From contig NC_079220.1 of the NCBI RefSeq assembly GCF_029633865.1, positions 16,786,216 through 16,850,215 of the forward strand: a stretch of DNA of 64,000 nt. Reading direction: 5' to 3'. The stretch is from Lampris incognitus. Its lineage: Eukaryota. The position numbers were made by a program, and so were the translations under genes. Numbering within the stretch: the stretch's first letter is position 1; each line of letters opens with the position of its first letter. Positions 1-64,000 of the stretch are shown piece by piece. Below the pieces are notes generated by a model, which searched no databases, was not told the origin of the DNA, and worked only from the letters and a program-made list of their open reading frames with translations.

Positions 1-454
1 CAGGTCTGTATCCCCCCCCAAAAAAGTTATTAAACTTTGAAAATCCAAAACGGTCCAAATGACCGCCTTATTAACTGGCGTCGTCATTATAATCTCTGAC
101 TTCTGCTGGTCCCACATGTCAACTTTGGCTGGGCTTGTTTTTTGTTGTGTTTTGGGTCCCCCCCCCCCCCCCTGTCAGATCAGTCATCAGACCTGAACCG
201 GTTGAGTGTAAATGTGGCTTTGATATTCTGGTATATAAGCAAATGTTTGATATGTTTGGCGACTTGGACACGTGCAGATGGCCACTTTACAAACCGTGCC
301 ATGGCGTTTTCTTGAGGCTCAATGCGGGCTCCTGTCTTGGCTGTTTGCCTCTTTATTTGTTTTGGATTCGCCACTCAAAATGACGCGTGCAGGGCACTTT
401 AAGTTAAAGGAAAGGTTTTTTTTTTTTTAACTGAGCTGTGAAATTGTGTTCTGT

Positions 455-655
455 AGCCCCCCCCTTTTTTTTCTCTCCCCAATTGTACTTGGCCAATTAC
501 CCCACCCTTCTGAGCCGTCCCGGTCACTGCTCCACCCCCTCTGCTGATCCGGGGAGGGCTGAAGACTACAACGTGTCTCCTCCGATACATGTGGAGTCAC
601 CAGCTGCTTCTTTGTTGCACATGGGCTTCTCCGCGTGGCTGCCATACAAGCTGAG
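455..655 (-). repeat. tRNA-derived SINE (family A), 3' body fragment
   Basis: Reverse complement of the conserved body/tail (ccccaattgtacttggccaattacccc...ctccgatacatgtggagtcaccagctgcttc) that recurs about 10 times in the window; no tRNA-like head here. Confidence 0.6.
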
Positions 656-1189
656 CGGAAGCAGTTTTGATTTCGATGAAGAGTGATGCCGTTGTTTGTT
701 TGTTCTTAATTTGGAGTTTAGGTTTTAGTGTGTTGTAATATTTGTTTCACACAAACAGAAAATCGCCTTTGATGGTCCCAAGGTGGCGGCACAGCTGCTC
801 CTTTACATTACCACAACCGTCTGTACATGTTCGAAACTGAACATTTCATCGAAAATGCAACAAATTATATTTGTAAAAAACAACCCCCCCATGAACTACA
901 GCTTTCATTACTTCCCACTATTCCGGTATCAAGCTATCTAGTTCTAATTTAACAAGATATTTGTGTGGTTTTAACTGAGATTGGTTTATCTTTCCTAGCG
1001 GCATAACAGTTTTGATTGAGAGCTCTGACTATACGGCCCCAAGTTGAGCCGTCTTTTACGAAAGCCCGGTCTAGCCAGCCGCGCGTCTGACTTTGATGCG
1101 CATTTACTGGCGGTGTTACGGTAGGGGTGCTTGGCGCGGACAAAAAAGGACGAGGGAAGACCCATATTTCATATTTCGGCAGATTCATT

Positions 1190-1500
1190 AAAGAATTTTC
1201 AATGGATTTATGTAATGGATTGATGTAGTGGAAGACCCTGGCTATGTTCATGGCAAATTTCACGTGTTTTTACTGTACAGTTTTTGAGAAAATGAAAGCT
1301 AAAATAAGCTTGATTTACATTATAATACATTAATAATGTCCACATAATTGAACTGAAATAATAATAATAATAAAAATGCCCTTAACAGTTGACACAGAAC
1401 TTTCAATGGATTCCTGTAGTGGAAGACCCTGGCTATGTTCATGACAAGTTTCATGTAATTTTACTGTATGGTTTTTGGGAAAATTAAAGCTAAGATAATT
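1190..1500. repeat. ~180-bp satellite, about 1.5 units, inverted relative to the main array
   Basis: Reverse complement of the unit seen at 2474-2749 and 7199-8340 (ccattgaaag/ggatgacccgggctatgtccatgacaagtttc ... ttataatacattaataatgtccacat). Confidence 0.6.
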
Positions 1501-3070: not shown

Positions 3071-4765
3071 TCACGGGGAAAACAGGTGACAAGTCGGGGG
3101 GCGGACCCTGCGGCCATAACGGCTGCGCTTCACAGGAGGGGAAACAGATGGGGCCGAAACCCGGGCCATAGGCGGGGCCGAAGCAGGAACAGAGGCAGGT
3201 GCCGGGGCCGAACTAGGAGGGCGCCCCCGCCGCGGGGGTAGGGCAAATTGCATTGGCTCCCCAATGTCCAAGTGAGCGGGCTTGAGACGGTCTATAGCGA
3301 CCCGCTCCGGCCTGCCCCCGATGTCCACCACAAAGTTCTTATCCCCCGCCTCCAGGACGCGGAAGGGCCCGTCGTATGGGGGCTGCAGCGGGGACCGATG
3401 GCTGTCGTGCCTAATGAAGACGTACCTCGCCGATGGCAGATCCCTGGGGACGTAGGACCGGGGGAGGCAGTGTTGAGACATCGGAACGGGAGCGAAGGCA
3501 CCGGCAGCGCTCCGGGACACACTGAGGTGAGAGGCGGCCGACCAGGGAGCCGTAGCATCCGGAAGAAACTCCCCCAGAACCCGCAGGGGCTGGCCATACA
3601 CCAGCTCAGCGGAGGAGGTCTGGAGGTCTTCCTTCGGGGCCGAACGCAGGCCGAGCATGACCCATGGGAGCCGGTCCATCCAGTCGCAGCCAGTGAGGCT
3701 TGCCCGCAGAGCGGCTTTCATGTCCCGATGGAACCGCTCACAAAGTCCGTTGCTCTGCGGGTTGTATGCCGCAGTGCGGTGGATCTTCACCCCCAGGTGC
3801 TCAGCGACCGCCGTCCAGAGCTCCGAGGTAAACTGGGAGCCCCGGTCGCTCGTGATGTCACCAGGCGTGCTGAAACGGGCCACCCAGCAGCCGATGAACG
3901 CCCGTGCTACCTCTGCTGCCGTCGTGGAGGACAAGGGAATACCCTCTGGCCACCTGGTGGCCCTGTCCACAATAGTGAGGAGGAACGTATAACCACGGGA
4001 GGGGGGCAGGGGACCCACCAGGTCAACATTGACGTGGTCAAACCGCCTCTCTGGAACCACAAACGGCGCCAAAGGGGCCTTGGTATGGCGGTACACCTTG
4101 GCGCGTTGGCACGCCACACACGAGCCGGCCCAGGCTCTAACATCCTTACGGAGCCCAGGCCAAACGAACTTGACGCTCACCAGCTTGGTCGAGGCCTTCA
4201 CTCCCGGGTGGGAAAGGCCGTGGACGGTGTCGAAAACTCGGCGCCGCCAGGAAGTAGGCACCAGGGGGCGCGGTTGACCGGTGGAGATGTCACAGAGGAG
4301 GGTGGTGTTGGCCGCGTCGAACGTCACGTCCTCCAGCCGTAGCGCCGTAGGGGTCGACCGGTAGTCTTGAACGGTCGCGTCCTTGGCTTGGTCCGCTGCC
4401 ATAGCGGCGTAGTCGAGTCCCAAGTGAACGGCGTTAACAACCGCCCGTGAAAGGCAGTCGGCGACGAAGTTATCCTTGCCCGACACGTGTTGTATGTCCG
4501 TGGTAAACTCGGAAACCGCCGCGAGATGGCGCTGCTGACGCCCAGACCACGGTTCTGAGGTTTTGGGCATACAGAACGTCAGCGGTTTGTGGTCCACGAA
4601 AGCGGTGAACTGTCGGCCCTCCAATAGGAACCTAAAGTGTCTGGTTGCGAGGAAGAGACCCAGTAGTTCCCTATCAAAGGTGCTGTATTTGCGCTCGCTC
4701 TCACGGAGTTGTTTACTGAAGAACGCCAACGGCTGCCAGCCCCCCCCCCCCCACCCACTGCTCAC
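3071..4765 (-). CDS. pol, C-terminal part: RNase H remainder plus integrase (zinc finger and DDE core)
   Basis: 564-aa [23 protein letters not shown] is the RNase H tail. HGLSHPGV...CVACQRAK is the integrase zinc finger. [12 protein letters not shown]...[10 protein letters not shown] is the DDE region. It joins the upstream pol ORF inside a 12-nt C/G homopolymer at 4741-4752. Confidence 0.8.
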
Positions 4766-6264
4766 ACGACGTAGTCGGAGGCATCCGTTGTAAGGGCTAT
4801 GGGGGCGGCAGGCGACGGGTGAGCTAGCAGCGCAGCGTTGGCCAGCGCGGTCTTGGCGGCCACAAAAGCCTCGTCCATCCCCGAAGACCAGTCCAGCTCG
4901 TCCTTAGACTTCTTACCCCGCAGGGCCTCATACAGGGGACGCATGATGTGGGCGGCACGGGGCAGGAAACGGTTATAAAAGTTCACCATGCCCAGGAATT
5001 CCTGCAGCGACTGTACAGTGCGGGGGCGGGGGAACATGGTGACAGCCTCAACCCTGGCAGGGAGGGGAACGGCCCCCTGTGGAGTGATGTGGTGCCCGAG
5101 GAAGGTGATGGACGACTCCCCGAACTGACACTTAGCTGGGTTGATGATGAGGCCGTGTTCGCTGAGCCTGTCGAACAGCTGTCTGAGGTGCGCCATGTGT
5201 TCCTCCGCCGACGCGCTGGCCACGAGGATGTCGTCTAAGTACACAAACAAAAATGGCATGTCGCGGAGCACAGAATCCATAAGGCACTGAAATGTCTGCG
5301 CCGCCCCTTTAAGGCCGAAAGGCATACGTAAAAACTCAAAGAGCCCAAAGGGTGTGATGACAGCCGTTTTTGGGACATCCAGTGGGTGGACCGGCACTTG
5401 GTGATACCCCCGCACTAAGTCGATTTTGGAATAGATGGCAGCGCCCGCCAGGTGGGTAGAGAAATCTTGTATGTGCGGTATGGGGTACCGGTCGGGGGTC
5501 GTGGCATTGTTTAGGCGACGGTAGTCCCCGCACGGGCGCCAACCCCTGTCGGCCTTAGTAACCATGTGAAGAGGGGAAGCCCATGGGCTGTCAGAACGGC
5601 GGACAATGCCGAGGCGCTCCATAGTCGAAAACTCCTCCCTGGCTATTGCGAGCTTGGCCGAGTCGAGGCGTCGGGCCCGGGCGTAAACTGGGGGGCCCAC
5701 TGTGGTGATATGATGTTCCACGCCGTGCTTGGCCACCGCCGAGGAGAAGGTGGGTGTGGTGAGCTCGGGGAAATTTGCGAGCAGGCGTTGGTATGGATCC
5801 CCGGTGGAGAGTGTGTTAGCGAGGCACAGCGCTCCAGCCCCCCCAAGCGTGCAGGGGTATGACGCAAAAGAGACGGCATCAATCACACGACAGTTTTTAA
5901 CATCCACCAGCAGGTTGAAAGCACAGAGGAAATCCGCACCTAGGAGCGGGGTGGATACAGCAGCCATCACAAAGTACCAGCCGAAACGTCGGCCGCCAAA
6001 ACACACGTCCACATGTCTGATACCGTATGTCCGAATGGACGTGCCGTTGGCGGCGTCCATCTGGGGGCCGTGACTGTCGGTCATCGTGTCCACAGCTTGT
6101 GCTGGTAGTGTGCTGCGTTGAGCGCCAGAGTCAACCAGCAGCCGTCGGCCCGACAAGGAGTCTCTGATGAACAACAGCTTGCAGTCACGGCCGGCGCCCA
6201 TAGCCGTTAACGAGCGCCGGCCTTGGCGTTTCCCTGAACCCTGTAACTGCAGGGTTTGCGACAC
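4762..6264 (-). CDS. pol, N-terminal part: aspartic protease plus reverse transcriptase plus RNase H start
   Basis: 500-aa ORF with [13 protein letters not shown] (protease), [25 protein letters not shown] and [11 protein letters not shown] (RT), TTDASDY (RNase H). Confidence 0.85.
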
Positions 6265-9306: not shown

Positions 9307-10047
9307 CTAGGTTGCAGGTTTCTCTCGAGGGTAGGAAGCATCGTCTTGAAACTTGGCGCTCGAGAACTGTGGCCCATTGTTGTCACTCACGACCACATCC
9401 GGTATGCCGTACTGGGCACATGTTGCTTTTAGCTTCAGAGTGACTTGAGCACCGGTTGTTGTTGTCATGTGTAGAATCTCTATGTATCTAGAGTAGTAGT
9501 CTGAGATAACTAAATCGTTCTGTTTGTTGTACTCACACAGGTCTAGAGCTATACGCTTCCATGGCCGGCCAGGGAGCAGAGTAGAGATCAATGGCTCCTT
9601 TTGCTGTGCTTTTCTTGACTCACAGCAAAACTGACACGACAATACCTTGTGTTTTATCTGTGAGGAAATTCCCAGCCACCAGACAGAGGCATTTGCCCTC
9701 TCCTGACATTTTGTGAGGCCCTGATGTCCATCATGAATCCTATCAAGAATGTCTGTCCTCAATGTCTCAGGTATCACTATTCGGCATCCCCTAGTAACTA
9801 TTCCTTTATACTCTGGAAGTTCACTTTTCATTGGAAAATACACTCTTACGTTACCTGGGACTTTACTCACATGTTCGGGCCACCCTGACCTGATGTGTCT
9901 GATCACCGTCTGTAGCGTCTCATCTGCTGCTGTGGCTGCTCTGATGCTGGCCAGCTTCTGTGGAGTAGCAGGCATGTTCTCAATGACAGCTGTGATGTAG
10001 CACTCCACATCTGAGTGTGTGTCCCTCTCGTCCTCCGTGTGGCGCAC
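9307..10047 (-). pseudogene. integrase fragment (zinc finger plus DDE)
   Basis: HDGHQG...CQFCCESR zinc finger; RIALDLCEY...VISDYYSRYIEI...VVSDNNGPQF catalytic core. Confidence 0.75.
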
Positions 10048-10056
10048 AGGGCTCCT

Positions 10057-10629
10057 TTACAGTGTGTCTGCCACAACGAGTGTCTTTCCAGGTGCATACT
10101 CCACTACGGGTTTAAACCTCATGAGCCGCATAAGAAGTCTCTGGCACCATAGTGGAACATTGTCTAAGTCCTTGCTGTTCATTAGTGGGACCAAGGGCTT
10201 GTGGTCTGTCACTAATTTGAAACTCTCGAGGCCATAGAGGTATTTTTCAAACCGCTCGCAGGCCCAGACACATGTCAAACACTCTTTCTCGATCTGCTCG
10301 TATGTGGTTTCCGCATCAGTCAATCTCCTGGAGAAGTATGCTACTGGCTTCCAGTCTTCCCCATGGAGCTGCAGTAGCACGCCACCGATCCCATAGCTAC
10401 TTGCATCAGCTGAGACTGTGGTGGGTTTGTTGATGTCGTAGAATGTCAACACAGGTAATGTCATCAGGAGCTCTTTAAGCCTCTCAAATGCTGTCTGTTG
10501 TGCTGGCCCCCAGGTCCATGCTGTCTTGGACCTTAGCAGCTCATACAGTGGCTGGCTGACTGTGGATAGGTTTGGCATGTATTTACCAAGATAGTTCACC
10601 ATGCCAAGGACTCGTTTCAGGTCATGCAC
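10057..10629 (-). pseudogene. RT connection plus RNase H fragment
   Basis: [16 protein letters not shown]...[23 protein letters not shown]. Confidence 0.75.
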
Positions 10630-10680
10630 ATTCTCTGGTGTGGTAAGCTCTCAGATAGCCTCCACTTTGGCTGGATCTGG

Positions 10681-11121
10681 TCACATGCCAGCGGCATCAA
10701 TCACATGCCCCAGGAAGTGATGCTGTTTCTGCCTCAGCACACACTTTTCCTTGTTGAGCTTAAGTCCAGCGGACTCGACTCTCTCCAGGACTTTCTGAAG
10801 CCGAAGGTCGTGTTCTTCCATGTGCCTTCCATACACGACTATGTTGTCCATGTACACAGCTGCCCCATGTAGGCCATGTAGTGTCTCTGTCATTTTTTTT
10901 TGAAATATCTCTGGTGCGCTCGTTATTCCAAATGGTAAGCATCGGAAACAGTACCCAGCGAATGGAGTGATGAACGTCGTTAGCCTGGCACTGTCGCTGT
11001 GCAAAGGGATCTGGAAAAATCCTGAGGCTGCATTGAGGCTTGAGAACACCATTGCTCCGCTCAGCTTGGCTATGATCTCCTCCGGTGTTTGTAAGATGAA
11101 TCTCTCTCTTGACCTGTTCAT
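10681..11121 (-). pseudogene. reverse transcriptase fragment
   Basis: FQIPLHSDSARLTTFITPFAGYCFRCLPFGITSAPEIFQ ... YMDNIVVYG. Confidence 0.75.
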
Positions 11122-11326
11122 TCAGTTTCTTTAGATCAACGCATATTCACACTTTTCCAGACCTTTTCAGGACGGGCACCATAGGGGCACACCAAGCTGT
11201 CAGCTCTGTTACCTCCTCTATAATGCCGTTCTCCTCCATCCGGCGCAGCTCCTCTCTAACCTTGTGCATTAGCGGTATTGGGACCCTGTGCGCTGTGTGC
11301 ACTGCATATGGTGTGGCATTGTCCTT

Positions 11327-11899
11327 TTACTGTATTTTTACAGGCTCTGTCTTGAGAGTGCCATGCTCTCCAAATGCATTATGGACCTCCTTGACTCGTT
11401 TCACAAGGCCCATCTCTACTGCAGTGGAACAGCTGAGTAAGTTATTGACACTCTGCCCTCTGATAACATACACTGGGAATGAGTATGACTTGCCCTTGTA
11501 CATGGTGCATGCTTGAAATTGTCCTTGACAATTCAATTGACCCCCTGGACTGCATAGTGAAATGCTGGTCTGCTTTAGTTCTCTCTCTGGAATTAGCATA
11601 TTGAAAGTCTCTTCACACATAACACTAGCGTCTGCTCCAGTATCAATCTTAAACTCCACTGGTGTTGCACCAATGAGAAGCTGCACTGTCCATTTTTCAT
11701 CACTCAAGTTTGCATTCACTGATCCCAAAAAGTATATATTCTGCTCATCAGTCTTTCTAACTTCACTCACCGATTTGCTCTTACACGTTCTCTCCCAATG
11801 TCCATTTTTGTTGCACTTGTTGCATGCTGATTTGAACGCTGGGCATCTTTCCTGGTTTTTCTGTTGTATTTTCCACATCTGCTGCACTTTCCTCCGCAC
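11327..11899 (-). pseudogene. gag zinc knuckle plus aspartic protease fragment
   Basis: CNKCNKNGHWERTCKSK (CCHC) and KIDTGADASVM (protease D-T/S-G). Confidence 0.7.
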
Positions 11900-22089: not shown

Positions 22090-22184
22090 GCGAAGTGTGG
22101 CAAGTGAGCAAGGTGGGGCCGTATCTGCCTGGAGCCCATGAAGAAGTTCTTGACATCGTCAACGCATTCATTCTAACTGACAAG
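22090..22184 (+). CDS. mvp: major vault protein, coding exon 5
   Basis: tgtctcag|GCGAAG. (G)[31 protein letters not shown]. Donor AAG|gtgact. Confidence 0.85.
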
Positions 22185-22299: not shown

Positions 22300-24047
22300 T
22301 TATTTCCTTCAGTGGTAAAACAGAATGCTAGAGGATTTGACAGCATTTTTTAAAAGATTAATTTACTTGTTTAAAGTCAATTCAAATAGCATGTCACAAT
22401 TTGATCCCATCAACCATAAAAACTTGGGAGACATTATACAACATCTGAAATCCTCCTCCTTCTGCCTTGATATTTTGCCAACAGGCTTTTTCAAAAATGT
22501 TTCTAATTGCATGTCCTCAGATCTTCTACAAATTGTCAACACGTCTCTTCCCTCAGGTCTTTTCCCACAGGCCCTGAAAACTGTAGTCATCAAGCCACTC
22601 TTAAAAAAGAATAATCTAGAAACTTCACTAATGAACAGTTATAGGCTGATTTCGAACCTCACATTTTTAAGCAAAATCACTGAAAAGGCTGTTTTCCTGT
22701 AGCTCAACAACTTTTTGGCACTAAACAATTGTTTCTATGTCTTCTGGTCTGGATTTCCACCACACTACAGCACAGAGACTGCTCTTGTTAAGGTCTTTAA
22801 TGACATCTGCTTAAATGCAGACAGTGGCAGAATCTCAGTCCTGGTATTATTGGATCTCAGTGCTGCATTTGACACAGTTGATTACAACATATTACTAGAC
22901 CAAATTGGAAAACTGGGTGGAACTTTCTGGCACAGCACTAAACTGGTTTGAATCCTACTTAAAGGACAGGGACTACTTTGTGTCTATAGGTAATTACAAA
23001 TCTGAGTGTACAAAAATGACATGTGGAGTTCCCCAAGGCTCCATTCTGGGACCACTTCTGTTTCACTTCTATATGCTCCCACTCATCCAGATTATGGAAA
23101 ACAACAAAATCTTACCATAATTATGCAGATGACACGCAGATTTACATAACCATATCACCAGGGGACTATAATCCCATACAAGCACTGAGTAAGTGATTTG
23201 AACAAATTAATGATTGGATGTCTCAGAATGTTCTTCAATTAAACAAAGATAAAACTGAAGTATTTGTCTTTGGAGCAAGGGAAGAACGATTAAGAGTCAG
23301 CATTCATCTACAATCGGTAATTTTAAAAACCACGAACTAAGCCAGAAATCTTGGTATGGTCATGGAGTCAGACCTGCATTTAGATAACCACATGAAGACA
23401 TTTATAAAGTCAGCCTACTATCACCTGAAGAATATATCAAGAACTAAAGGATTTATGTCTCAGCAGGATTTGGAAAAATTTGTCCATGCATTTATCTTCA
23501 GTCGACTCTACTACTGTAATGGTGTCTTTGCAGGTCTTTCTAAAAAAGCGATGAAACAGCTGCAGTTGCTTCAGAATGCTGCTGTTCGAGTCCTTACTAC
23601 AGTGGTGCCCAACCCTGCTCCTGGAGAGCTACCATCCTGCCGTTTTTCACTCCAACTCTAATTTAACACACCCGATTCTACTAATTACCTACTGACCAAG
23701 ATCTTGTTTAATTGAATCAGATGTGTTAAAATCAGGGTTAAACCGGCAGGGGGTTAGCTCTCCAGGAGCAGAGTTGGGCACCACTGCCTTACTACAACCA
23801 AAAGAGTGGCTCACATCAATCCAGTCATGAGGTCGCTACACTGGCTTCCTGTCTATCAAAGAACTGATTTTCAAACTCTGCTGTTGGTTTATAAAGCACT
23901 GAGTTGTTTAGGGCCAAAATACATTTCTGATCTACAGCTACACTATGAACCTTCCAGACCGCTCAGATCGTCTAGGGACAGGTCTGTTTCTGTCCCCAGA
24001 GTCAAACCTAAACATGGAGAGGTAGCTTTCAGTTTTTATGCACCATG
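22300..24047 (+). mobile_element. L2-like LINE ORF2 (RT and C-terminal domain) fragment; its 3' tail continues at 25247-25340 after the Tc1-derived insertion
   Basis: RT motifs across frame-shifted ORFs ([57 protein letters not shown]). C-terminal SLHWLPVYQRTDFQTLLLVYKALSCLGPKYISDL...PRVKPKHGEVAFSFYAP is typical of fish L2 elements. Confidence 0.75.
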
Positions 24048-24049
24048 TA

Positions 24050-25246
24050 CACTACCGTTCAAAAGTTTGGGATCACCCAAACAATTTTGTGTTTTCCATG
24101 AAAAGTCACACTTATTCACCACCATATGTTGTGAAATGAATAGAAAATAGAGTCAAGACATTGACAAGGTTAGAAATAATGATTTGTATTTGAAATAAGA
24201 TTTTTTTTACATCAAACTTTGCTTTCGTCAAAGAATCCTCCATTTGCAGCAATTACAGCATTGCAGACCTTTGGCATTCTAGCTGTTAATTTGTTGAGGT
24301 AATCTGGAGAAATTGCACCCCACGCTTCCAGAAGCAGCTCCCACAAGTTGGATTGGTTGGATGGGCACTTCTTTGAGCAGATTGAGTTTCTGGAGCATCA
24401 CATTTGTGGGGTCAATTAAACGCTCAAAATGGCCAGAAAAAGAGAACTTTCATCTGAAACTCGACAGTCTATTCTTGTTCTTAGAAATGAAGGCTATTCC
24501 ATGCGAGAAATTGCTAAGAAATTGAAGATTTCCTACACCGGTGTGTACTACTCCCTTCAGAGGACAGCACAAACAGGCTCTAACCAGAGTAGAAAAAGAA
24601 GTGGGAGGCCGCGTTGCACAACTGAGCAAGAAGATAAGTACATTAGAGTCTCTAGTTTGAGAAACAGACGCCTCACAGGTCCCCAACTGGCATCTTCATT
24701 AAATAGTACCTGTTAGAGCCTGTTTGTGCTGTCCTCTGAAGGGAGTAGTACACACCGGTGTAGGAAATCTTCAATTTCTTAGCAATTTCTCGCATGGAAT
24801 AGCCTTCATTTCTAAGAACAAGAATAGACTGTCGAGTTTCAGATGAAAGTTCTCTTTTTCTGGCCATTTTGAGCGTTTAATTGACCCCACAAATGTGATG
24901 CTCCAGAAACTCAATCTGCTCAAAGAAGTGCCCATCCAACCAATCCAACTTGTGGGAGCTGCTTCTGGAAGCGTGGGGTGCAATTTCTCCAGATTACCTC
25001 AACAAATTAACAGCTAGAATGCCAAAGGTCTGCAATGCTGTAATTGCTGCAAATGGAGGATTCTTTGACGAAAGCAAAGTTTGATGTAAAAAAAATCTTA
25101 TTTCAAATACAAATCATTATTTCTAACCTTGTCAATGTCTTGACTCTATTTTCTATTCATTTCACAACATATGGTGGTGAATAAGTGTGACTTTTCATGG
25201 AAAACACGAAATTGTTTGGGTGAACCCAAACTTTTGAACGGTAGTG
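24050..25246. mobile_element. Palindromic Tc1-derived non-autonomous element, copy A (TA|CACTACCG...CGGTAGTG|TA)
   Basis: About 540-bp inverted arms; each carries the Tc1 TIR (cactaccgttcaaaagtttgggatcaccc) and the transposase N-terminal HTH coding part (MARKRELSSETRQSILVLRNEGYSMREIAKKLKISYTGVYYSLQRTAQTGSN). ORFs 24313..24525(+) and 24771..24983(-) are identical. About 120 nt of unique loop at the centre. TA duplicated at both flanks. Confidence 0.8.
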
Positions 25247-25727
25247 TATCTGGAACAAACTCCCAGAAAACTGCAAGTCTGCTGTAACTCAGTTTTTTAA
25301 AAATCAAGACTGAAGACTTTTCTCTTTACCGCTTCCTTTTATTAAATAAAAGTTGAAGCTTTTGATTCTCATCTTACACTTCACTGTAACTTTTACTCTT
25401 TTTATTTGTTTTAAATATCTTTTTACTGCCTTATGTTGCTTCTCTTAATGCCTTTTATGTTTTATGTAAAGCACTTTGAATTGCCTTGATGCTGAAATGT
25501 GCTATATAAATAAATTTGCCTTGCCTTGTTTATATCAAATGCTCAATTATAGGCTCAATTATTTATACAACACACACACACTCACACACATTTGTGAATT
25601 CTCTCTCTTTGTCCATCTCTCTCTTGTCTGACTGATGTGTTCACACATTGTAATAAAGATTGTACAATAGAATATATCACCATGCAACCTTTCACTGAAA
25701 ATAACTCTCTGTCTCTCTCTCTCTCAG

Positions 25728-29404: not shown

Positions 29405-30630
29405 CTCCCTCATATGTACAATGATGAGCCAAAACATTATGACTGCTTGCAGGTAAACCAAATAACGTTAATCATCTCCAAACAAGAGCACATGTCAAGG
29501 TCTGGGTTGATTAGATGGTAAGCAAACAATCAGTTCTTGTAGTCAATGTGCTGGATGCAGGAGAAATGGGGAGGAATAAAGACCTGAGCGACTTTGATGA
29601 GGGCCAAATTGTTATGGCCAGATGACTGGGTCAGAGCTTGTTTGAAACAACAAGGCTTGTGGGGTGCTCCCAGTCAGCAGTGGTGAGTACCTACCAGTAG
29701 TGGTCCGAGGAGGGACAAACCACACACAGGTGACAGGGTGTTTGGTGCCCAAGGCTCATCGATGTCCAAGGGTAATGACGGCTATCCCATCTGGTCCGAA
29801 CCAACAGAAGGTCTACTGTGGCACAGAAAATTTAAGTGATGGTTACGGTTGGAGTGTGTCATAACACACAGTGCATCACAGCCTGCTGCATATGGGGCTG
29901 CGTAGCTGCAGACTGGTCAGAGGGTCCATGATGACCTCTGTCCACCGTCGAAAGTGCCTACAATGTGCAAACAAGCATCAGAACTGGACCTTGGAGCAGT
30001 GAAAGAAGGTCACCTGGTTTGATGAGTCCCGTTTTCTTTTAGATCATGTGGATGGCTGTGTACATGTGCGCCATTTACCTGGGGATGTGATTGCACCAGG
30101 ATGTACTGTGGGAAGACGACAAGCTAGTGGCGGGAGTGTGATGCTCTGGACAATGTTCTGCTGGGAAACCCTGGGAAACCATGTGGACATCAATTTGACA
30201 TGTGCCACCTACCCAAACAATGTTGCAGAACAGGTATACCCCTTCATTGCCATGGTATTCCCTGATGGCAGTGGCCTCTTTCAGCAGGATAATGCACCCT
30301 GCCACACTACACACATTGTTCGGGAATGGTTTGAGGAACATGACGAAGTGTTCAAGGTGTTGTCCCGGCCTCCAAATTCTCCAGATCTCCATCCGAGCAT
30401 CTGTGGGATGTGCTGTACCTATAAGTGCGATCCATAGCGGCTCCACCTTGCAACTTACAGGAATTGAAGGATCTGCTGTTAATGTTTTGGTGCCAGATAC
30501 CACAGGACACCTTCAGGGATCTTATAGAGTCCATGCCTCAGCGGGTCAGCGCTGTTTTGGTGGCACATGGATGACCAACAGCGTACCAGGCAGGTGGTCA
30601 TAATGTTTTGGCTCATTAGTGTGCATACTT
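29405..30630 (+). mobile_element. Tc1-like transposon with transposase pseudogene (mvp intron 8)
   Basis: Terminal inverted sequences atgagccaaaacattatgac (about 29414) and ggtcataatgttttggctcat (about 30596). DDE-domain ORF 30048..30437 (WTMFCWETLG...FQQDNAPCHT...PPNSPDLHP) with upstream in-frame stops and frameshifts. Confidence 0.75.
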
Positions 30631-35194: not shown

Positions 35195-35640
35195 ATGTAC
35201 AGATGGGAGACAAATGAAAGGAAAAACCTGAATGCTGGACCCCTCTGTTATGCTGTGGGGGGGCATTTTCCTGGCATGGTTTGGGTCCACTTGTCCACTT
35301 AGAGGACGGGTCACTGCAAATCAATACAAAGTTATTCTGAGTGATCACCTTTATCCTATGATGAAACATGTCTATCCTGATGGGAGTGGTCTCTTTTAGG
35401 ATGACAATGCCCCCATCCTCAGGGCACGAGGGGTCACTGAATGGTTTGATGAGTATGAAAATGATGCAACTCGTATGCTATGGCCTTCACAGTCACTAGA
35501 TCTCAACCCAGTTGAACTCCTATGGGAGATTTTGGACCGATGTGTTAGATGGAGCTCTCCACCACCATCATCAGAACACCAAATTTCCTTTAATTTGTCA
35601 CCCGTCTGTATGTATCTATGTATGTATGTATGTATGTATG
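35195..35640 (+). mobile_element. Tc1-like transposase C-terminal fragment ending in a (TATG)n microsatellite
   Basis: ...RVTANQYKVILSDHLYPMMKHVYPDGSGLF.DDNAPI...[10 protein letters not shown]; terminates ...ttaatttgtcacccgtctgtatgtatctatgtatgtatg. Same family as 59800-60290. Confidence 0.65.
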
Positions 35641-36752: not shown

Positions 36753-37119
36753 GTTTGCCCTCCACTGTGTTTTATTGCAGGTTTAATAGCCGTGGGTTGA
36801 TGGGGGAATTTACACACAGGGTTTTTCTTTTGCATCCTTTCAAGCCCCCTGTTTCAATGTGGCTGCATCCCATCAGCTATTTGATGCTACAGAAATCATA
36901 CAAATGATGATTATTATGAGACTGAATCAAATTTGTTCACCTAGCACCTTGAGATACACACACAACCTTAGCTACGGGATTTTTGTTTCACAATTTATTT
37001 CATAGTTCAGCTTCATTGTTTTTCTTTTTATCTAACGAATAAAGCACAAAGTGAGTATCAACATTTTAAAAACAGAAATGGCTAAGGAGGTTTTCATATC
37101 TTTGCTGTTCTCTGACCAG

Positions 37120-37331
37120 AACTCCAACCGTATCATCTGTTCAGCGGTGTTTGGTTTCGATGAGAAGCTGGCAGTGAGGCCCAAACTGTGTTTCAGCCAA
37201 AACAACCTGAATGTCAGCAGTGTGGACATCCAGTCTGTGGAACCGGTGGACCAGAGGACACGTGATGCCCTGCAGAAGAGCGTCCAACTGGCCATCGAGA
37301 TCACCACCAACTCCCAGGAAGCCGCTGCACG
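37120..37331 (+). CDS. mvp: major vault protein, coding exon 12
   Basis: tctgaccag|[76 protein letters not shown](R). Donor CACG|gtttgc, followed by (CA)n. Confidence 0.88.
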
Positions 37332-37333
37332 GT

Positions 37334-37438
<105 letters not shown>

Positions 37439-37449
37439 CCCTGCTTTTG

Positions 37450-40400
37450 CTAGTTGTCCATCGTATCCGATGATGACCATCTTCTCCTATTTGTGAGTCC
37501 TTTGGTGGCTGAATAGTCTGATCCTGGATGCACAGTTGCAGTTGCAGACCGGGCATGTAAAAGTGGTGCGGGGGGGGTAGCTTTGCGAGCATGCCTCTTT
37601 GCATGCTTTGCTACACGGTGTTGTGTGTGCTGGTTTTCCATATACTTCTCTCTCTGTGAGACGTGAGAGCACCAGATGATGTGGCAGGAGGCAAGTTCCT
37701 CTAAAGAAGAGGGGTTGATCTGGCATCTTTTCAGTGTGGTCTTCATTTGGTCTTTGAACCACTTCTTCTGCCCACCAGCACTGCGTTGACCGAGGTGAAG
37801 TTGGCTGTAGAGGGCTTCACGTGAGAGTTGTTGGCTGGGCATGCGAATGACATGCCCAAGCCACCTGAGTTGATGGTGGTTTAGGGTAGACTCCACGCTG
37901 CAACTGCCTGCCCGTTTCAACACCTCTATGTGTGTCACTCTGTCCTTCCAAGTAATGCCGAGGATTCTATGGGGACATCTCACATGGAAGGCCTCCAGGC
38001 TTCTGAGATGGTGGCTGTAGATGGTCCATGCCTCACATCTATATAGTAATGTGGAGATGCATACTGCTGTGTAAACAAGCACTTTGGTGTGGAGATTGAG
38101 GTTGCTGTTCTCGAAAACCTCTCTTTATACGACCAAAAGATGTTGAGACTTGTTTGAGGCGGTGTTGGATCTCATCATACATTGTGCAGGTGTCAGATAG
38201 TATGCTTCCCAGATATTTGAAGGCAGGAACAGTGGCCAGCTGTTGCCCTTCTGCTGTCAAGGTTGTTGGGTGGCTTGGGAGGCCGGCACTCATCTGACAG
38301 ATTACCTCTGTCTTTTGGGTGTTGATGATCAGTCCCATTCTACTGTATGCAGTTACAACTGCCGACAGTGTGTTTTGTAGGGCTTCTGGTGTGTGGGCTA
38401 CCGGGGCACAATCGTCGGCATACTGTAGCTCAATGATATTCTCAGAGGTCAACTTGGTGGTTGCCTGAAACCTCCTGATGTTGAATAGGTTATCACTGAG
38501 CCTGAAGTCAATGGTGACTCCAGCCTGCTTCTCCATCCTCCTTCGTAACAGTGTTGTAACACAGACTAAGAAGATATTGAACAGGACTGGGGCTAGCACA
38601 CAGTTTGGTGTGCAGCCTGACTCCAGTCTGCAAACCAAAGGGCTCAGAACTGTGACTACCTACTACTACTCAAGCCATCATTCCTGAGTGAAACTGTCCA
38701 AGCATGGTGAGAAACTTGGGTGGACATCCAAAGTTCTTCAGGACTTGCCACAGTAGGTCCCTGTTGACTGTATCAAATGCCTTTGAGAGGTCTATGCATG
38801 CTATGAATAAGTCCTTGTGCTGTTCTTGTCATTTCTCCTGGAGCTGGGGTGTGACAAAGATCATGTCAACTGTCATTCTATCCTGTCGGAAGCCGCATTG
38901 TGACTCTGGTATGACCCGGTTGGCTATTGTTAGTGTTAGTCTGTGGAGCATGATCTTGGTTAGGACCTTTCCGGCAATGGCCAGTAATGAAATATCCCTA
39001 CTGTTGGAGCAGATGGATTTGTCTCCTTTGTTTTTATAAATGGTCACAATGTTGGCATCTTTCCACTGTTGGAGGACACACTCGTGACTCAACATCTCAA
39101 GGATGTAGAGACACAGTGTCCTCATACAGAGGTAGCCTCCTTCCTTGAGGATGTCAGCTGGAATGTTATCAGGTCCAAGGGTTTTATTGTTTTTCAGGGT
39201 CTTGACCACATGTAGGATTTCTTTGAAGGTTGATGGGAGGTCTAGATCTTGCAAGGTAGGCTGTTCAGGGAGCTCTGCCAGTACAGCTGAGTGCACTGGG
39301 GTGGGCTGGTTGAGCAGGGTGTTAAAATGCTCGGCCCACCACTCCATTAACAGGGCCTGGTCCTTAATAAGAGTTGTTCCATTAGCAGATCTAACGGGTG
39401 CCAGGGAGCAGTTTCTGGGGCTATAGATGGTCTTAACTGCATCACAGAAGCTATGAATTTCGTTCCTGTCTGCATGAGCCTGGATTTCGTTGGCTTTCAA
39501 AATCCATCACTCATTTTGCAGGTTCCGCAGAGTTGCTTGGGCCTCAGAGCGGAGGTCTTGCCATTGTTTCTTGAGAGGTTGGGATAGTGGGTTGCTGAGG
39601 GTGGCTCTGTGTGCCTTATACATGTGGTCCAGGAGGGTGGAGAACTTTCCGGCATCGTCATCAAGGCAGTCTTGATGTTTTTTGGTTTTGAAGCCAATGG
39701 ATTAGGCTGCACTGTCAAAGAGGGTGTTGCTCAGAGAGGTCCACTTCTCATCCATCCCAGACTCTGAGTTGATCAGCTGTTCAACGTCTACTAACTTGTT
39801 GGCTAGAGAATGACGGAAGGTGTTTGGGGTGTCGCTGTTGGAAAGTCTCGGGCAGTGGAGCGGTTTCTTCTTTGGCCCACATTGGCGTCTCAAAGTTCAA
39901 ACATGCACTCGACTTTTGTCAGGATCATGCAGTGGTCTGTCATCCAGCAGTCTGTTCCTCGCATAGCTCTTGTAAGGATCACGTCTTTAAAATCAGCCCA
40001 CCTCACGATAGCATAAGGTGTCAGTGTTTGATCTGGGATGCATCCAGGATGCCTTGTATTTATTCTTTTGTTGGAAAATGGTGTTTGTGATGGTGAGGTC
40101 ATGTTCTGAGCACAGACTAAGAAGTCTTACGCCATTGGAGTCAACTTTTCCAGTGCCATGGGTGCCAATCACTCCATTCCAGTTTTGCATGTTCTTCCCA
40201 ACTCATGCATTAAAATCCCCAAGCAGAATGACTTTGTCACTCCTTGGGATGTTGTTGAGTATACCATCGAGTGCCTGGTAGAAGCGAGCTTTCTCTTCAT
40301 CATGGGATGGTAAGGTTGGTGCGTAGGCACTTATCAAGGTAATGTATCGGCATTTTGTGAGGGGTATGTGGAGAGTCATCAGCCATTTGCTGATGCCCAC

Positions 40401-40910
40401 TGGTGTTTCTTCGAGACTGGGTAAGAGACTGTTCTTAATTGCAAAACCAACTCCATGAATGCGTTGACCTCCTAGGGGGTATCCTTTCCAAAAGAGTGTG
40501 TAGCCCTCTCCCATTTCATTGAGTGAGCCTTCCTCAAGGAGCCTGGTCTCACTGAGTGCCACCACATCCACACAATAGCGCTTCAGCTTGCTGTACCATG
40601 GCTGATGTCCAGGAGTGTTGTTATGTTCCACGCTGCAATTCTTAATGGTATAGTGTGTTTTCTTCGACGGCATAGTAGAATGGCCTGGCAGGTGTGGTTT
40701 CCTGCCCAGGCATAGTGTTGAGTGGGCAATTTTTGGGCCACCTTTTCTAGGCCGTTCCCCAAATGGGGTGAGCAGTGTGGTCCCTAAATAGGGCTGCTCA
40801 GACGCACAGGGGTCTGCCAGAAACAGATGCCATGCAATCCCAGGTGCTAACGACCGTTGCCCTGTGCCACTGGCGTGCAGAGTTCCAGCTAAGCGCTCCC
40901 AGCTCATTCA
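37450..40910 (-). mobile_element. LINE ORF2 (APE endonuclease plus RT plus C-terminal domain), degraded (mvp intron 12)
   Basis: Endonuclease ORF 40203..40907 (…VILLGDFNA, LISAYAPT). RT ORFs 38829..39500 and 38039..38638 (QCGFRQDRMT; ELQYADDCAPVAH). C-terminal ORF 37450..38082 (ILGITWKDRVTHIEVLKRAG...LRWLGHVIRM). Confidence 0.8.
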
Positions 40911-57926: not shown

Positions 57927-59577
<1,651 letters not shown>

Positions 59578-59799
59578 AAGTTCTTCTTTGAGCTTAGTCG
59601 TCTGCATTTGCTTGTTTGCAACATCGCTTTGTCTTTAAACTTGCTGCTAGCTGTCTTATTCCTCACATTTGACTTCTACGGTTAAGACGGAAACATGATG
59701 TGTCATATAATTTTTCTAGGGAAAGTTGTACTCAGCAGTAACCAGCAAATACAGAAGTGTAATGGTGACAAATGAAAGGAAAAACCTCAATGCTTAACC

Positions 59800-60290
59800 C
59801 CTACAGTGAGGGGGTCTGGGAGCTCTGTTATGCTGTGGGGGGCATTTTCCTGGCATGGTTTGGGTCCACTTGTTCCCTTACAGGGAAGGGTCACCGCAAA
59901 TCAATACAAAATTATTCTGAGTGATTACCTTTATCCTATGATGAAATATTTCTATCCTGATGGGAGTGGTCTCTTCCAGGATGACAACTGAATGGGTTGA
60001 TGAGGATGAAAATGATGTAAATCATATGCTATGCCCTTCACAGTCACCAGATCTCAACCCAGTTGAACACCAATGGGAGATTTTGGACCGACGTGTTAGA
60101 CAGCGCTCTCCATCAGCACCATCAAAACACCAAATGAGGGAATATCATTTGGAACAATGGTGTTCCACACCTCCAGTAGAATTCAGAGACTTGTAGAATC
60201 CATGACAAGGAGCACTGAAGCTGTTCTGGAGGCTCAGGGTGGCCCATGACACTTTATGGTGGTGTTTAATTTGTCCCCCGTCTGTATGTA
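59800..60290 (+). mobile_element. Tc1-like transposase C-terminal fragment (same family as 35195-35640)
   Basis: SVMLWGAFSWHGLGPLVPLQGRVTANQYKIILSDYLYPMMKYFYPDGSGLFQDDN...[24 protein letters not shown]; ends ttaatttgtcccccgtctgtatg. Confidence 0.65.
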
Positions 60291-61487
60291 CACTACCGTT
60301 CAAAAGTTTGGGATCACCCAAACAATTTCGTGTTTTCCATGAAAAGTCACACTTATTCACCACCATATGTTGTGAAATGAATAGAAAATAGAGTCAAGAC
60401 ATTGACAAGGTTAGAAATAATGATTTGTATTTGAAATAAGATTTTTTTTACATCAAACTTTGCTTTCGTCAAAGAATCCTCCATTTGCAGCGATTACAGC
60501 ATTGCAGACCTTTGGCATTCTAGCTGTTAATTTGTTGAGGTAATCTGGAGAAATTGCACCCCACGCTTCCAGAAGCAGCTCCCACAAGTTGGATTGGTTG
60601 GATGGGCACTTCTTTGAGCAGATTGAGTTTCTGGAGCATCACATTTGTGGGGTCAATTAAACGCTCAAAATGGCCAGAAAAAGAGAACTTTCATCTGAAA
60701 CTCGACAGTCTATTCTTGTTCTTAGAAATGAAGGCTATTCCATGCGAGAAATTGCTAAGAAATTGAAGATTTCCTACACCGGTGTGTACTACTCCCTTCA
60801 GAGGACAGCACAAACAGGCTCTAACAGGTACTATTTAATGAAGATGCCAGTTGGGGACCTGTGAGGCGTCTGTTTCTCAAACTAGAGACTCTAATGTACT
60901 TATCTTCTTGCTCAGTTGTGCAACGCGGCCTCCCACTTCTTTTTCTACTCTGGTTAGAGCCTGTTTGTGCTGTCCTCTGAAGGGAGTAGTACACACCGGT
61001 GTAGGAAATCTTCAATTTCTTAGCAATTTCTCGCATGGAATAGCCTTCATTTCTAAGAACAAGAATAGACTGTCGAGTTTCAGATGAAAGTTCTCTTTTT
61101 CTGGCCATTTTGAGCGTTTAATTGACCCCACAAATGTGATGCTCCAGAAACTCAATCTGCTCAAAGAAGTGCCCATCCAACCAATCCAACTTGTGGGAGC
61201 TGCTTCTGGAAGCGTGGGGTGCAATTTCTCCAGATTACCTCAACAAATTAACAGATAGAATGCCAAAGGTCTGCAATGCTGTAATTGCTGCAAATGGAGG
61301 ATTCTTTGACGAAAGCAAAGTTTGATGTAAAAAAAATCTTATTTCAAATACAAATCATTATTTCTAACCTTGTCAATGTCTTGACTCTATTTTCTATTCA
61401 TTTCACAACATATGGTGGTGAATAAGTGTGACTTTTCATGGAAAACACGAAATTGTTTGGGTGATCCCAAACTTTTGAACGGTAGTG
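60291..61487. mobile_element. Palindromic Tc1-derived element, copy B (opposite orientation to copy A), with TA target-site duplication
   Basis: Same structure and nearly identical sequence as 24050-25246; ORFs 60554..60766 and 61012..61224 are identical. Inserted at a TA within the (TATG)n tail of the Tc1 fragment. Confidence 0.8.
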
Positions 61488-61639
61488 TATGTATTGTATA
61501 TATTGTGGAGGATGAAAGAAAGGAGAGGAGACCACTTCCCCTTTTGACCACACAGCCGTGGGGTCGTTTATTTCCTCCAACTCAAACTAAGTCAGTAGTT
61601 CATTCTGCTAAACCTCAGCCTAGTGTCTACCCACAATAC

Positions 61640-64000
61640 TGACATGCCACACAGGCGCCCGCCCAGTCCTTTACGTCCTTCCTGAGGCCATGCCACCAAC
61701 TTCGTTGACGCCTTCATGCCTGGGTGTGAAAGGCCATGGATGACATCAAAAACCCTTCACCGCCAGCTTGTAGGCACCATGGGCCGGGGCTGACCCTTGG
61801 AGACGTCACAGAGAAGCGTGGCCCCGGCGTCATTGAACACCACATCCTTCAACTGCAGCCTGGTGTCAGCAGTCCGGTAGGCCTGCACTTCTGTGTCAGC
61901 ACCCTAGTCTGCAGCCATGGCTGCATAGTCGAGTCCCAAGTGGACAGCCCCCAACATCGCCCGGGAGAGGCAGTCGGCGACAAAGTTGTCCTTGCCGGCG
62001 ATGTACCGGAATGTCAGTGGTGAACTCGGAGATGTAAGAGAGCTGGTGCTGTTGGCGCCCAGACCACAGCTCGGTGGCTTTGGCCATGGTGAATGTCAGC
62101 AGCTTGTGGTCCACAAACACAGAACAGGTGGCCTTCCAGCAGGAACCGGAAGCAGCGGATGGCGAGAAACAGGCCAAGAAGCTCCCAGTCAAAGGTACTG
62201 TATTTCCTCTCACTGCTGCACAGCTGGCGGCTGAAAAAAGCAAGCAGCTGCCAGGCTCCGCCCACCCACTGCCCCCACGGCGTAATCTGAGGCATCCGTG
62301 GTGAGTGCTACTAGGGCAGTTGGTGATGGGTGCGCCAACAAGGCGGCGTCAGCCAGCGCAGCCTTAGCGTCCTCAAACACCTGTTCTCTCTTCCGACCAG
62401 TCCACTGGGCCCTTGGGGTCCTTACCCTTCAGAGCCTCATACAGGGGGCGCATGAGATGCGCTGCCCAGGGAATGAACCGGTTGTAAAAGTTCACCATGC
62501 CCAGGAACTCCTGCAGGGACTTCACCGTGTTCGGGCGTGGGAACCTGGCGACGGCGTCCACCTTGTCGGGGAGGGGGGTTGCTCCGTCCTTTGTAACCCG
62601 GTGCCCGAGGAAATCAATAGTTGGCAGGCCCAACTGGCACTTTGCCAGGTTGACGATGAGCCCATGCTGGCTGAGCCGGAGGTGGACCAGGTGCTCCGTT
62701 GCGGACATACTGGCCACGAGAATGTCGTCCATGTAAACAAACAGGGACGGCATATCTCGCAGCACAGAGTCCATGAGCCGCTGAAAGGTCTGTGCAGCCT
62801 CCTTGAGCCCAAACGGCATCCTCAGGAACTCGAACAGGCCGAACGGCGCGATTGCTGCCGTCTTCGTCACATCCTGTGGGCGGACCGGCATCTGGTGGTA
62901 TCCGCGCATGAGGTCCACCTTGGAGAAGATGACTGCTCCCGCCGAGTGCATGGAGAAGTCCTGGATGTGCGGGACGGAGTAGCGGTCTGGCATCATGGCG
63001 TTGTTGAGGCGGCGGTAATCACCACATGGGCGCCAGCCGGCGTTAGCCTTCATGACCATATGCAGGGGGGAGGCCCATGGACTGTCGGAGCGGCGCACGA
63101 TGCCGAGGTGCTCCATGTTGGCAAACTCCTCCTTGGCGATGGCGAGCTTGGCTGGGTCGAGGTGCCGTGCACAGGCGTAGACTGGGGGGCCCATGGTGGT
63201 GTAGTGTTCCACTCCATGCTTGGCGACTGCTGATGAGAAGATGGGCATTCTGAGGTCCGGAAACTCAGCGAGCAGACGCTGAAATTCATCCCCGGTGGCA
63301 ATCATGTTAGACATGCCGATGGGACCCGCCTCCCCCAGCGTACATGGGTAGGAGCAGAAGGAGACGGTGTCAATCAAGCGGCGGTTTTTAACGTCTACCA
63401 AGGGCCTGTCTGTGAATGTTCTCATTCATCCAGGTCATGGTTATCACTACCAACAGCCCATAAGCGTGCAGGAAATTCACACCCAGGAGGGCAATGGACA
63501 CCATCGCCATTACAAAGCCCCAGCCGAACCGCCGACCTCCAAAAAACCACCTCCACATACCTCGTGCCATAGGTGCGTACGGGGGTGCCGTTAGCAGCAT
63601 CCATAGCGGGGCCGAATCCGCCGGCCATCGCGTCCACTGGTGTCACAGGCAGGATGCTCCACTGCGCGCCCGAATCAACCAGCAACCGCCGGCCGGAGAT
63701 AGTGTCCTGAATAAATAGCAGCCTTCCTTCCCAGCCAATGCTCAGGGCTACTACTGAGCGCTGGCCCTGGCTTTTCCCGCCCTGCTGAAAGTGCACGGTG
63801 CACGGCATTGCTTGGCTTTGGTTCCAAACCTAGCATGGTAGAAGCACAGTCCTCCTGAGTCCTGCTGCCAATGAGAAACTGCTGCCATGGCGACACCCGC
63901 AGCCTCAACTGGCGGTGGTGGAAGAGCATGGGCAGGCAGCAGAGCGGCCGCAAACTGCTGTCAGCTGGCGAGAAAAATCCCGTGAGCCTCCGCGGCCAAC
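61640..64000 (-). mobile_element. Diverged, 5'- and 3'-truncated relative of the 2750-7198 gypsy-like element; continues beyond the window
   Basis: RT ORF 62373..63425 ([25 protein letters not shown]; FVYMDDILVAS) at about 75% aa identity to element 1. Protease ORF 63422..63808 ([13 protein letters not shown]). Integrase region mostly deleted. Confidence 0.8.
62373..63425 (-). pseudogene. pol (RT) remnant of the second gypsy-family copy
   Basis: 350-aa ORF, with neighbouring frame-shifted RNase H pieces (61896..62295). Confidence 0.75.

Follow-up and report, generated by a model that had tools for sequence, protein, structure and literature searches.

A 64,000-nucleotide stretch of the Lampris incognitus genome (assembly GCF_029633865.1, contig NC_079220.1, positions 16,786,216 to 16,850,215 of the forward strand), referred to throughout as the window, carries two copies of a palindromic element, copy A at 24050-25246 and a flipped copy B at 60291-61487. 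The element is probably a hairpin-shaped, non-autonomous derivative of an Intruder transposon, formed by a template switch followed by a snap-back and later moved in trans. Nucleotide identity places its parent in Intruder (IT, DD38E), a published family that is sister to Tc1: across all four of its segments, the element matches the published Cyprinodon variegatus IT at 98.5-99.7% identity, and its termini give the same 26/27 match to CACTACCGTTCAAAAGTTTGGGGTCAC in two metagenome contigs, L004 and L005, and in the published cluster-4 ITs.

Copy A is composed of two arms of 535 bp each (24050-24584 and 24712-25246), which differ at 2 positions in a position-by-position comparison. An ungapped inverted-repeat search returned a single arm pair, 98% complementary and 127 nt apart, while folding of the element as single-stranded DNA gave one unbroken hairpin of -691 kcal/mol. 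The number of direct-repeat families within 23800-25500 was 0. Reading of the sequence at both copies showed TA followed by CACTACCG at one end, and CGGTAGTG followed by TA at the other. An earlier note on this stretch, made from its letters, had described two inverted arms of roughly 540 bp joined by about 120 nt, with TA on both sides and no catalytic domain, and the measured arms, their true inversion on alignment, the 127-nt loop and the flanking dinucleotides all bear this out. As regards the catalytic domain, Pfam and tblastn found none in the element; only transposase residues 1-94 and 290-347 are kept and the DDE_3 region is absent. The 95-aa open reading frame (ORF) represents the N-terminal DNA-binding part of the IT transposase and is 97% identical by tblastn to residues 1-94 of the L005 transposase. 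Its first 52 codons lie in the inner segment of the left arm (99.7% identical to positions 355-568 of the published reference), which encodes the first helix-turn-helix (HTH), PAI-like subdomain and gave matches to Pfam HTH_38 and HTH_29, and codons 53-94 in the loop supply the GRPR motif and part of the second HTH.

Related DNA was recovered by protein search and contig look-ups, and the element was mapped to L001 (a near-full-length relative), to L005 and to the published 1616-bp Cyprinodon variegatus Intruder. Expressed in the coordinates of the latter, it reads as the reverse complement of 1295-1616, then 355-694, 1 nt, the reverse complement of 355-568, and finally 1295-1616, with positions 1-354 (the 5' end of the parent) and 695-1294 (all of the catalytic core) absent. 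Nucleotide identity to L001 and L005 is 97-98.6%. The same layout was seen at the protein level, where tblastn of the L005 transposase on the window gave residues 290-347 antisense, 1-94 sense, 1-53 antisense and 290-347 sense, and where translation of the reverse strand of element positions ~155-340 read out the transposase C-terminus, …LWELLLEAWGAISPDYLNKLTARMPKVCNAVIAANGGFFDESKV and a stop. The outer segment of the left arm accordingly holds the right terminal inverted repeat (TIR), the 3'UTR and the last ~54 transposase codons in antisense (98.8% identity to the published reference, 97.8% to L001). As mapped, each arm is a chimera in which the parental 3' end is joined in inverted orientation to the 5'UTR and codons 1-52, and both termini of the element are parental 3' ends, with no 5' TIR present.

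This map bears directly on what the arms are. In the earlier note, the arms were read as 5' ends of a Tc1 transposon, each comprising the TIR and the first 64 codons of the transposase, so that the element would be a head-to-head fusion of two 5' ends. Foldbacks of that 5'-5' kind do exist elsewhere in IT (L002 and L003/L004, see below) and the arms do hold the ATG and 52 codons; however, the outer 324 bp of the arms are parental 3' end, with antisense C-terminal codons and a stop, and parental positions 1-354 are entirely missing, which makes a 5'-5' fusion very improbable. The count of codons also had to be revised, as only 52 N-terminal transposase codons lie in each arm and the remainder of the 64-aa ORF is loop sequence read antisense.

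Both internal junctions could be read at base level. The first (J1, sequence GGGCACTTCTTTGAGCAGATTGAG) lies at element positions 322-324 and is mirrored at 874-876. The second (J2, sequence AATAGTACCTGTTAGAGCCTGTTTG) takes parent position 694 to 568 on the opposite strand with no microhomology and one untemplated T. Since J1 occurs twice in exact mirror symmetry, it either predates the palindrome or was copied during its formation. Base-level comparison revealed no TIR or TA signature at J1 and none at J2. A nested insertion of the double-Ds type, whereby a truncated element inserts inverted into another, would be in keeping with the window, where nested Tc1-like insertions are common (copy B lies beside a Tc1 remnant and copy A in a long interspersed nuclear element, LINE). 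Yet internal positions (1295/355 and 694/568) are joined at J1 and J2 without terminal repeat or TA duplication, and a mirror-symmetric double J1 is not expected from independent insertions, so that such an origin is highly unlikely.

J1 was present in none of the full-length ITs examined (among them the published cluster-4 entries and the Seriola entry), nor in L001 and L005-L010. The Seriola lalandi entry opens with arm sequence, and J1 was considered as a feature of full-length ITs with long TIRs; this was rejected, as the entry is merely listed reverse-complemented, and past …gatgggcacttctt it runs on as gcgtaccatacgg…, through the whole antisense transposase, to a normal 5' end. The perfect TIR of the parent being only ~27 bp, the 535-bp arms are a derived feature.

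The following pathway would account for the end product. A full-length IT would have been excised, and repair synthesis primed from the right flank would have copied the right end inward as far as position 1295. At CTT the nascent strand would have switched template to the opposite strand at 355 and copied 355-694, creating J1. Its 3' end would then have snapped back on its own strand at 568, with a blunt join and 1 filler nucleotide, creating J2, and self-copying back out through J1 to the terminus would have yielded a perfect palindrome whose two terminal repeats are identical, functional right ends. Template switch and snap-back possibly took place within one repair event. A one-ended, immobile fragment would thereby have been turned into a unit with two right-end termini.

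Copy B, whose arms also differ by 2 mismatches and whose arm and loop lengths equal those of copy A, was used to follow the later history of the element. Copy A differed from reverse-complemented copy B at 4 positions (99.67% identity) and from copy B in direct orientation at 73, all of them in the loop, which shows that copy B is flipped. The 95-aa and 64-aa ORFs are identical between the copies, and the description of copy B in the earlier note (its position, flipped orientation, few differences and same short ORFs) thus stands. At each of the 4 difference sites three of the four arm copies agree, the private changes being at element positions 39 and 1175 in copy A and at its own positions 202 and 965 in copy B. 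As all 4 differences are private to one arm, the common ancestor of the two copies was a perfect 535-bp palindrome. Since then, 2 substitutions have accumulated in the 1197 bp of either copy (0.17%), and if neutral change in vertebrates is taken, as is common, to run at 1e-9 to 1e-8 per site per year, their divergence would amount to roughly 0.2-2 million years. This age is consistent with the recent IT activity described in PMC7731502. As a sign of selection on the ORFs, the absence of all 4 substitutions from the N-terminal ORF region (439 bp), where ~1.5 would be expected, is not significant (P about 0.16, from only four events).

Shared flanks would have pointed to a duplication of the locus. 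The flanks of copies A and B showed no similarity over 1 kb on each side, on both strands, and the copies are therefore not a segmental duplication. One might also suspect an artefact of assembly, such as a palindrome from a chimeric long read, given that palindromes are a known artefact class and that the copies are merely 36 kb apart; against both possibilities, the edges of the element coincide at the two loci with the exact IT termini and have TA on either side, each copy has its own two arm-specific substitutions, the flanks are unrelated and the empty site of copy A restores a continuous LINE ORF. Either explanation is extremely improbable.

Movement of the element as a unit follows from its TA-flanked independent insertions, the unrelated flanks and termini that are exactly those of full-length IT, and since the catalytic domain is absent, mobilisation must have been in trans. 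As read from these two loci, the 1197-bp unit appears to have been cut and pasted by a trans-supplied transposase into at least two TA sites. Of the original description of a trans-mobilised, head-to-head, MITE-like foldback, the foldback itself, the movement as a unit and the low divergence are retained; the ends are two 3' ends, and the term MITE-like is loose. Miniature inverted-repeat transposable elements, or MITEs, typically stay below ~600-800 bp and have no coding remnants, whereas this element measures 1197 bp and retains the 95-aa HTH ORF and C-terminal coding fragments. Homogeneous families of many copies are a further mark of MITEs; of this element 2 copies were seen in the window, and junction searches in collections other than fish gave no match.

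A candidate source of transposase was sought among elements with matching TIRs. The L005 contig (JGI Ga0208618_1013911) contains a complete IT of 1618 bp, which extends from TIR to TIR at 99-1716 between TA flanks. Its ORF of 347 aa is intact, with HTH_Tnp_Tc3_2 and DDE_3 above the Pfam cut-offs and the catalytic residues D154, D244 and E283 at a spacing of 38 (DD38E). The element itself lacks the DD38E triad, its core (695-1294) being deleted, and is not an autonomous IT. The view that no partner with matching TIRs is known can thus be set aside, as L005 is complete and its family, Intruder/DD38E, has been published and shown by experiment to be active (PMC7731502). Intruders are defined by DD38E and are 1.5-1.7 kb long with transposases of 341-379 aa (Gao et al. 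2020, Mob DNA 11:32; PMC7731502); they have spread horizontally in recent times among ray-finned fishes and frogs, and transpose in HeLa cells (PMC7731502). The termini of the element, together with near-identical full-length sequences, are present in cluster 4 of the supplement 9 alignment of PMC7731502. The cluster-4 ITs of Cyprinodon variegatus, Merluccius polli, Astyanax mexicanus and Ageneiosus marmoratus are almost identical despite very distant hosts, and almost identical also to the IT fragments of the window, so that IT sequence is of no use for telling which species a host is. Fish-type IT was further seen in metagenomes not expected to hold fish DNA, namely L004 ('human skin metagenome') and L005, which could reflect either contamination or another sign of horizontal mobility; a similar puzzle, concerning 'cat' genome contigs, is found in the IT paper (PMC7731502).

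The window contains a further Tc1-like element of another family at 57928-59567. Its transposase, encoded by an uninterrupted ORF, carries HTH_SB, HTH_Tnp_Tc3_2 and DDE_3, with a catalytic spacing of 34 counted from the sequence, and the element looks potentially autonomous. As a partner it was rejected: its termini are unrelated, it has no nucleotide similarity to the palindromic element, and its transposase is of the DD34E type and 36% identical to that of IT. The earlier placing of an intact Tc1 with different termini at 57927-59577 was right as to the termini, while the right end was read at 59567 and not at 59577.

Further copies were sought in sequence collections. Six ORFs of the element, three of them junction-spanning, had no exact match in a 15-billion-protein collection. 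A J1 24-mer gave 0 matches in prokaryote genomes, in viral contigs and in metagenome contigs from JGI, and a J2 25-mer gave 0 matches in viral contigs; as all of these hold almost no fish DNA, the result carries no information on copy number. The 70-aa ORF spanning J1 had two homologues only, both with the normal upstream 5'UTR and without J1. Several considerations weigh against the template switch and snap-back origin followed by movement in trans. No J1-only precursor and no further copy of J1 or J2 was found in the collections searched, a weak negative as these contain no fish genomes; a full-length IT was not found in the 64-kb window, and the intact partner L005 is a metagenome contig; only the end product is there to show how the element formed; and two copies at a distance of 36 kb do not establish that a family has amplified. 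In addition, the lack of microhomology at J2 is unusual after snap-back priming and would also suit a hairpin intermediate that was end-joined.

The last point leads to an alternative in which a double-strand break in a J1-bearing half element, or in an excised linear intermediate, produced by intrastrand foldback a hairpin-capped end that was replicated into a palindrome. J2 is a short-range turn-around (126 nt, 568 to 694) with no microhomology and 1 filler nt, and resembles the junctions of yeast foldback inversions (PMC7467729). Such an origin still needs a separate, earlier J1 event, and no direct evidence was found that separates it from snap-back during synthesis-dependent strand annealing (SDSA); we regard it as unlikely, though not to be neglected.

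Whether the element amplifies bears on a further reading, by which it does not amplify: it would have hopped once, locally, homologous repair would have restored the donor, and the form could be uncommon or confined to this locus. Reinsertion close by is frequent among Tc1-type elements, only two near-identical copies were seen and no J1/J2 match was obtained. On the other hand, the collections searched hold almost no host DNA, so that absence means little; an element of very low copy number would hardly be expected twice within 64 kb unless it hops locally; and the analogous 5'-5' form (653 to 738) is multi-copy elsewhere, in 10 distinct proteins and in 2 contigs from different samples. This reading is possible but on balance doubtful, and a template switch with snap-back, followed by movement in trans, is preferred as the history of the element.

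The insertion sites were then placed with respect to mvp, whose coding exons span 17118 to 47687 on the + strand by tblastn with human MVP and show Vault-domain homology in short matching fragments in a homology search. Copy A lies in sense orientation between the mvp exons ending at 22184 and resuming at 25695, that is, in the fifth coding intron. Removal of the element and one TA from this site gives a continuous ORF (…AFSFYAPCIWNKLPENCKSA…), which is the tail of a degenerate LINE, and ORF fragments from 22325-23196 matched RVT_1 at E=6e-20. The position of copy A inside a LINE in mvp intron 5, as given in the earlier note, thus holds when coding exons are counted, with the RVT_1 fragments and the ORF through the empty site as evidence for the LINE. 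The LINE is degenerate and frameshifted (22325-25310, +) within the mvp intron, and copy A has inserted into the conserved ORF of its C-terminal tail. Downstream of mvp, copy B sits 12.6 kb from the last exon, just 3' of a Tc1-like remnant (59785-60193) in a (TGTA)n-like tract, and the empty site reconstructed for it has a weak paralogue across the insertion point, at 35589-35627.

Other repeats in the window include degenerate Tc1-like transposase remnants at 59785-60193 (+), 29856-30571 (+) and 35244-35573 (+), with 27-49% amino acid identity to the IT transposase; two of the three are inside mvp introns. A long LINE-like element with ORF fragments of 199-234 aa occupies 37450-40907 on the minus strand, antisense to mvp, in the intron that follows the exon ending at 37341 and precedes the one starting at 42455. 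Large retrotransposon pol ORFs, with long-terminal-repeat-type reverse transcriptase and integrase-like sequence, lie on the minus strand on both sides of mvp (3071-6264, 9307-11899 and 62373-63425), the copy at 62373-63425 resembling the ORF 4762-6264. A long (CA/TG)n microsatellite at ~37130-37250 falls inside the tblastn MVP match 37099-37341, with ORF translations of VCVCVC… and HTHTHT…, and given this microsatellite the mvp coding exon at 37099-37341 is probably shorter than the match.

Table 1. Features of the palindromic element and its surroundings. Positions are those of the window unless marked as element positions; parent positions are those of the published Cyprinodon variegatus IT.
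Feature	Positions	Strand	Details
Copy A, palindromic non-autonomous Intruder (IT/DD38E) derivative	24050-25246	+	1197 bp; orientation set by loop and 95-aa ORF
Left TA target-site duplication, copy A	24048-24049		Sequence read
Right TA target-site duplication, copy A	25247-25248		Sequence read
Terminal inverted repeat	24050-24076	+	27 bp; 26/27 identical to IT terminus CACTACCGTTCAAAAGTTTGGGGTCAC
Left arm outer segment	24050-24373	-	Reverse complement of parental 3' end, published C. variegatus IT 1295-1616
J1, left arm	24371-24373		CTT 3-bp microhomology, parent 1295 (inverted) to parent 355; base-level comparison
Left arm inner segment	24371-24584	+	58 bp parental 5'UTR and transposase codons 1-52; ATG at 24429
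Loop	24585-24711	+	127 nt; codons 53-94 (parent 569-694) and 1 untemplated T at 24711 (J2)
Right arm	24712-25246	-	Inverted copy of left arm (2 mismatches); second J1 24923-24925; terminal repeat 25220-25246
95-aa ORF, copy A	24429-24716	+	Transposase codons 1-94, then Cys, then stop arising at J2
64-aa ORF, copy A	24673-24867	-	Right-arm codons 1-52 and 12 codons reading loop antisense (RYYLMKMPVGDL)
Copy B, same 1197-bp element, flipped	60291-61487	-	Arms 60291-60825 and 60953-61487; loop 60826-60952
95-aa ORF, copy B	60821-61108	-	
Left TA target-site duplication, copy B	60289-60290		Sequence read
Right TA target-site duplication, copy B	61488-61489		Sequence read
Reverse complement of parent 1295-1616	Element 1-324		98.8% to published reference
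Parent 355-694	Element 322-661		99.7% to published reference
Extra nucleotide	Element 662		1 nt
Reverse complement of parent 355-568	Element 663-876		99.5% to published reference
Parent 1295-1616	Element 874-1197		98.5% to published reference
Window Tc1 of another family	57928-59567	-	347-aa ORF 58156-59199, minus strand; termini TA followed by CAGTGCTGCTTGAAAGT…

A functional role can be imagined for copy A, in which the hairpin in the mvp intron would act as a constitutive double-stranded RNA trigger against IT, the 95-aa ORF would titrate transposase sites and the IT N-terminal region would be a foldback hot spot. We consider this improbable as a whole. Were it true, every pre-mRNA of mvp, a widely expressed gene, would carry a near-perfect RNA hairpin of 535 bp, whose arms would cover the 5'UTR and first 52 codons, and the last ~54 codons and 3'UTR, of the IT mRNA. 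The locus would then be a source of siRNA or piRNA, or an ADAR substrate, directed against a recently invading and still active family, the retained DNA-binding ORF could titrate transposase binding sites, and the IT N-terminal coding region, as a recurrent foldback hot spot, would repeatedly seed such triggers. In C. elegans, Tc1 is silenced by fold-back read-through transcripts (review, PMC3878927), and the locus would be the counterpart of this in a vertebrate.

The kind of element and the mechanism proposed for it are already known, and no general principle is altered. Its value lies in the detail, since the origin of long-armed or hairpin non-autonomous DNA transposons is usually obscure and the parent lost, whereas here the parent is ~99% identical and both junctions can be read to the base. 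On the origin preferred above, the element would be a natural record of abortive repair synthesis that made a one-terminus half-element into a mobile two-terminus unit. The description of the Intruder family is also extended, as rearranged or non-autonomous forms are not reported in the main text of the IT paper, where the words palindrome, foldback, hairpin, MITE and non-autonomous are absent (PMC7731502). For annotation, it can be expected that repeat maskers will split the element into Tc1 fragments of opposite orientation and that gene callers will report short HTH 'transposase' ORFs.

Compared with Intruder itself, the element is alike in its termini, its TA duplication and an identity of 98.5-99.7% over every segment kept, and differs in the missing 1-354 and 695-1294, the two inversion junctions, the 535-bp arms and the two 3' ends. 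Other foldbacks of the same lineage were found in ENA metagenome contigs (L002-L004), which were reached via proteins with tails of antisense transposase N-terminus. L003 and L004, from different samples, share an identical junction in which …GGCAGAGT is followed directly by TCCTCTGTC… (parent 653 to the reverse complement of 738), and are laid out as left TIR, 5'UTR, N-terminus and inverted N-terminus. The diagnostic antisense tail of this junction occurs in 10 proteins, and its presence in 2 contigs and 10 proteins indicates that the form is multi-copy; on these sequences it is taken to be an amplified palindromic family in some other host. In L002 the junction runs from parent 643 to the reverse complement of 370, and the end is the reverse complement of the left terminus. 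In these contigs, as in the element, the turn-around lies in the N-terminal coding region, there at parent ~643-738; unlike the element, L002 and L003/L004 still possess the genuine left end and lack J1. The turn-around points differ, and L002, L003/L004 and the element thus represent independent events. From these junctions, foldback formation within parent ~570-740 seems to be recurrent in IT. Among the other proteins, P0089 suggests a further short-range turn-around near codon 75, and P0243 and P0245 are ordinary internal-deletion derivatives of IT.

Foldback elements of the Drosophila FB type and Galileo share with our element the long inverted arms and the capacity to form a hairpin. They are members of other superfamilies, and FB arms consist of tandem subrepeats; the arms of our element are in contrast unique transposon sequence with 0 direct repeats. 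With regard to the two 3' ends, pseudo-Mos1 with two 3' ITRs (3Tet3) are functional donors (PMC2642840, citing Augé-Gouillou et al. 2001). Like the element, these are units of the Tc1/mariner superfamily with two 3' ends, there a competent substrate; they are artificial constructs of the mariner family assayed in bacteria and in vitro. Whole-element foldback MITEs have been described in C. elegans and others (PALTA1/2/4_CE, CeleTc2, CeleTc5 and Hairpin; PMC3814204). By description, they share with the element an architecture of essentially one hairpin and the Tc1-superfamily TA duplication, but their parents and junctions are mostly unknown, while the parent of the element is ~99% identical and both its junctions are base-resolved. 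A further counterpart is the Goblin MITE of Aedes aegypti, in which the two subterminal regions come from one end, the right, of its autonomous Tc1/mariner parent Ozma, the junction is likewise an inverted one with microhomology, and for which SDSA template switching was proposed (Yang et al. 2013; PMC3814204). The element is one-end-derived in the same manner, in that both its ends correspond to parent 1295-1616 and J1 is a 3-bp microhomology junction in inverted orientation, and template switching in SDSA gap repair is the proposed explanation in both cases. Goblin is a short MITE without coding remnants; the element adds to this scheme the inverted 5'UTR and N-terminal coding sequence, a snap-back junction and a palindrome that takes in the whole element.

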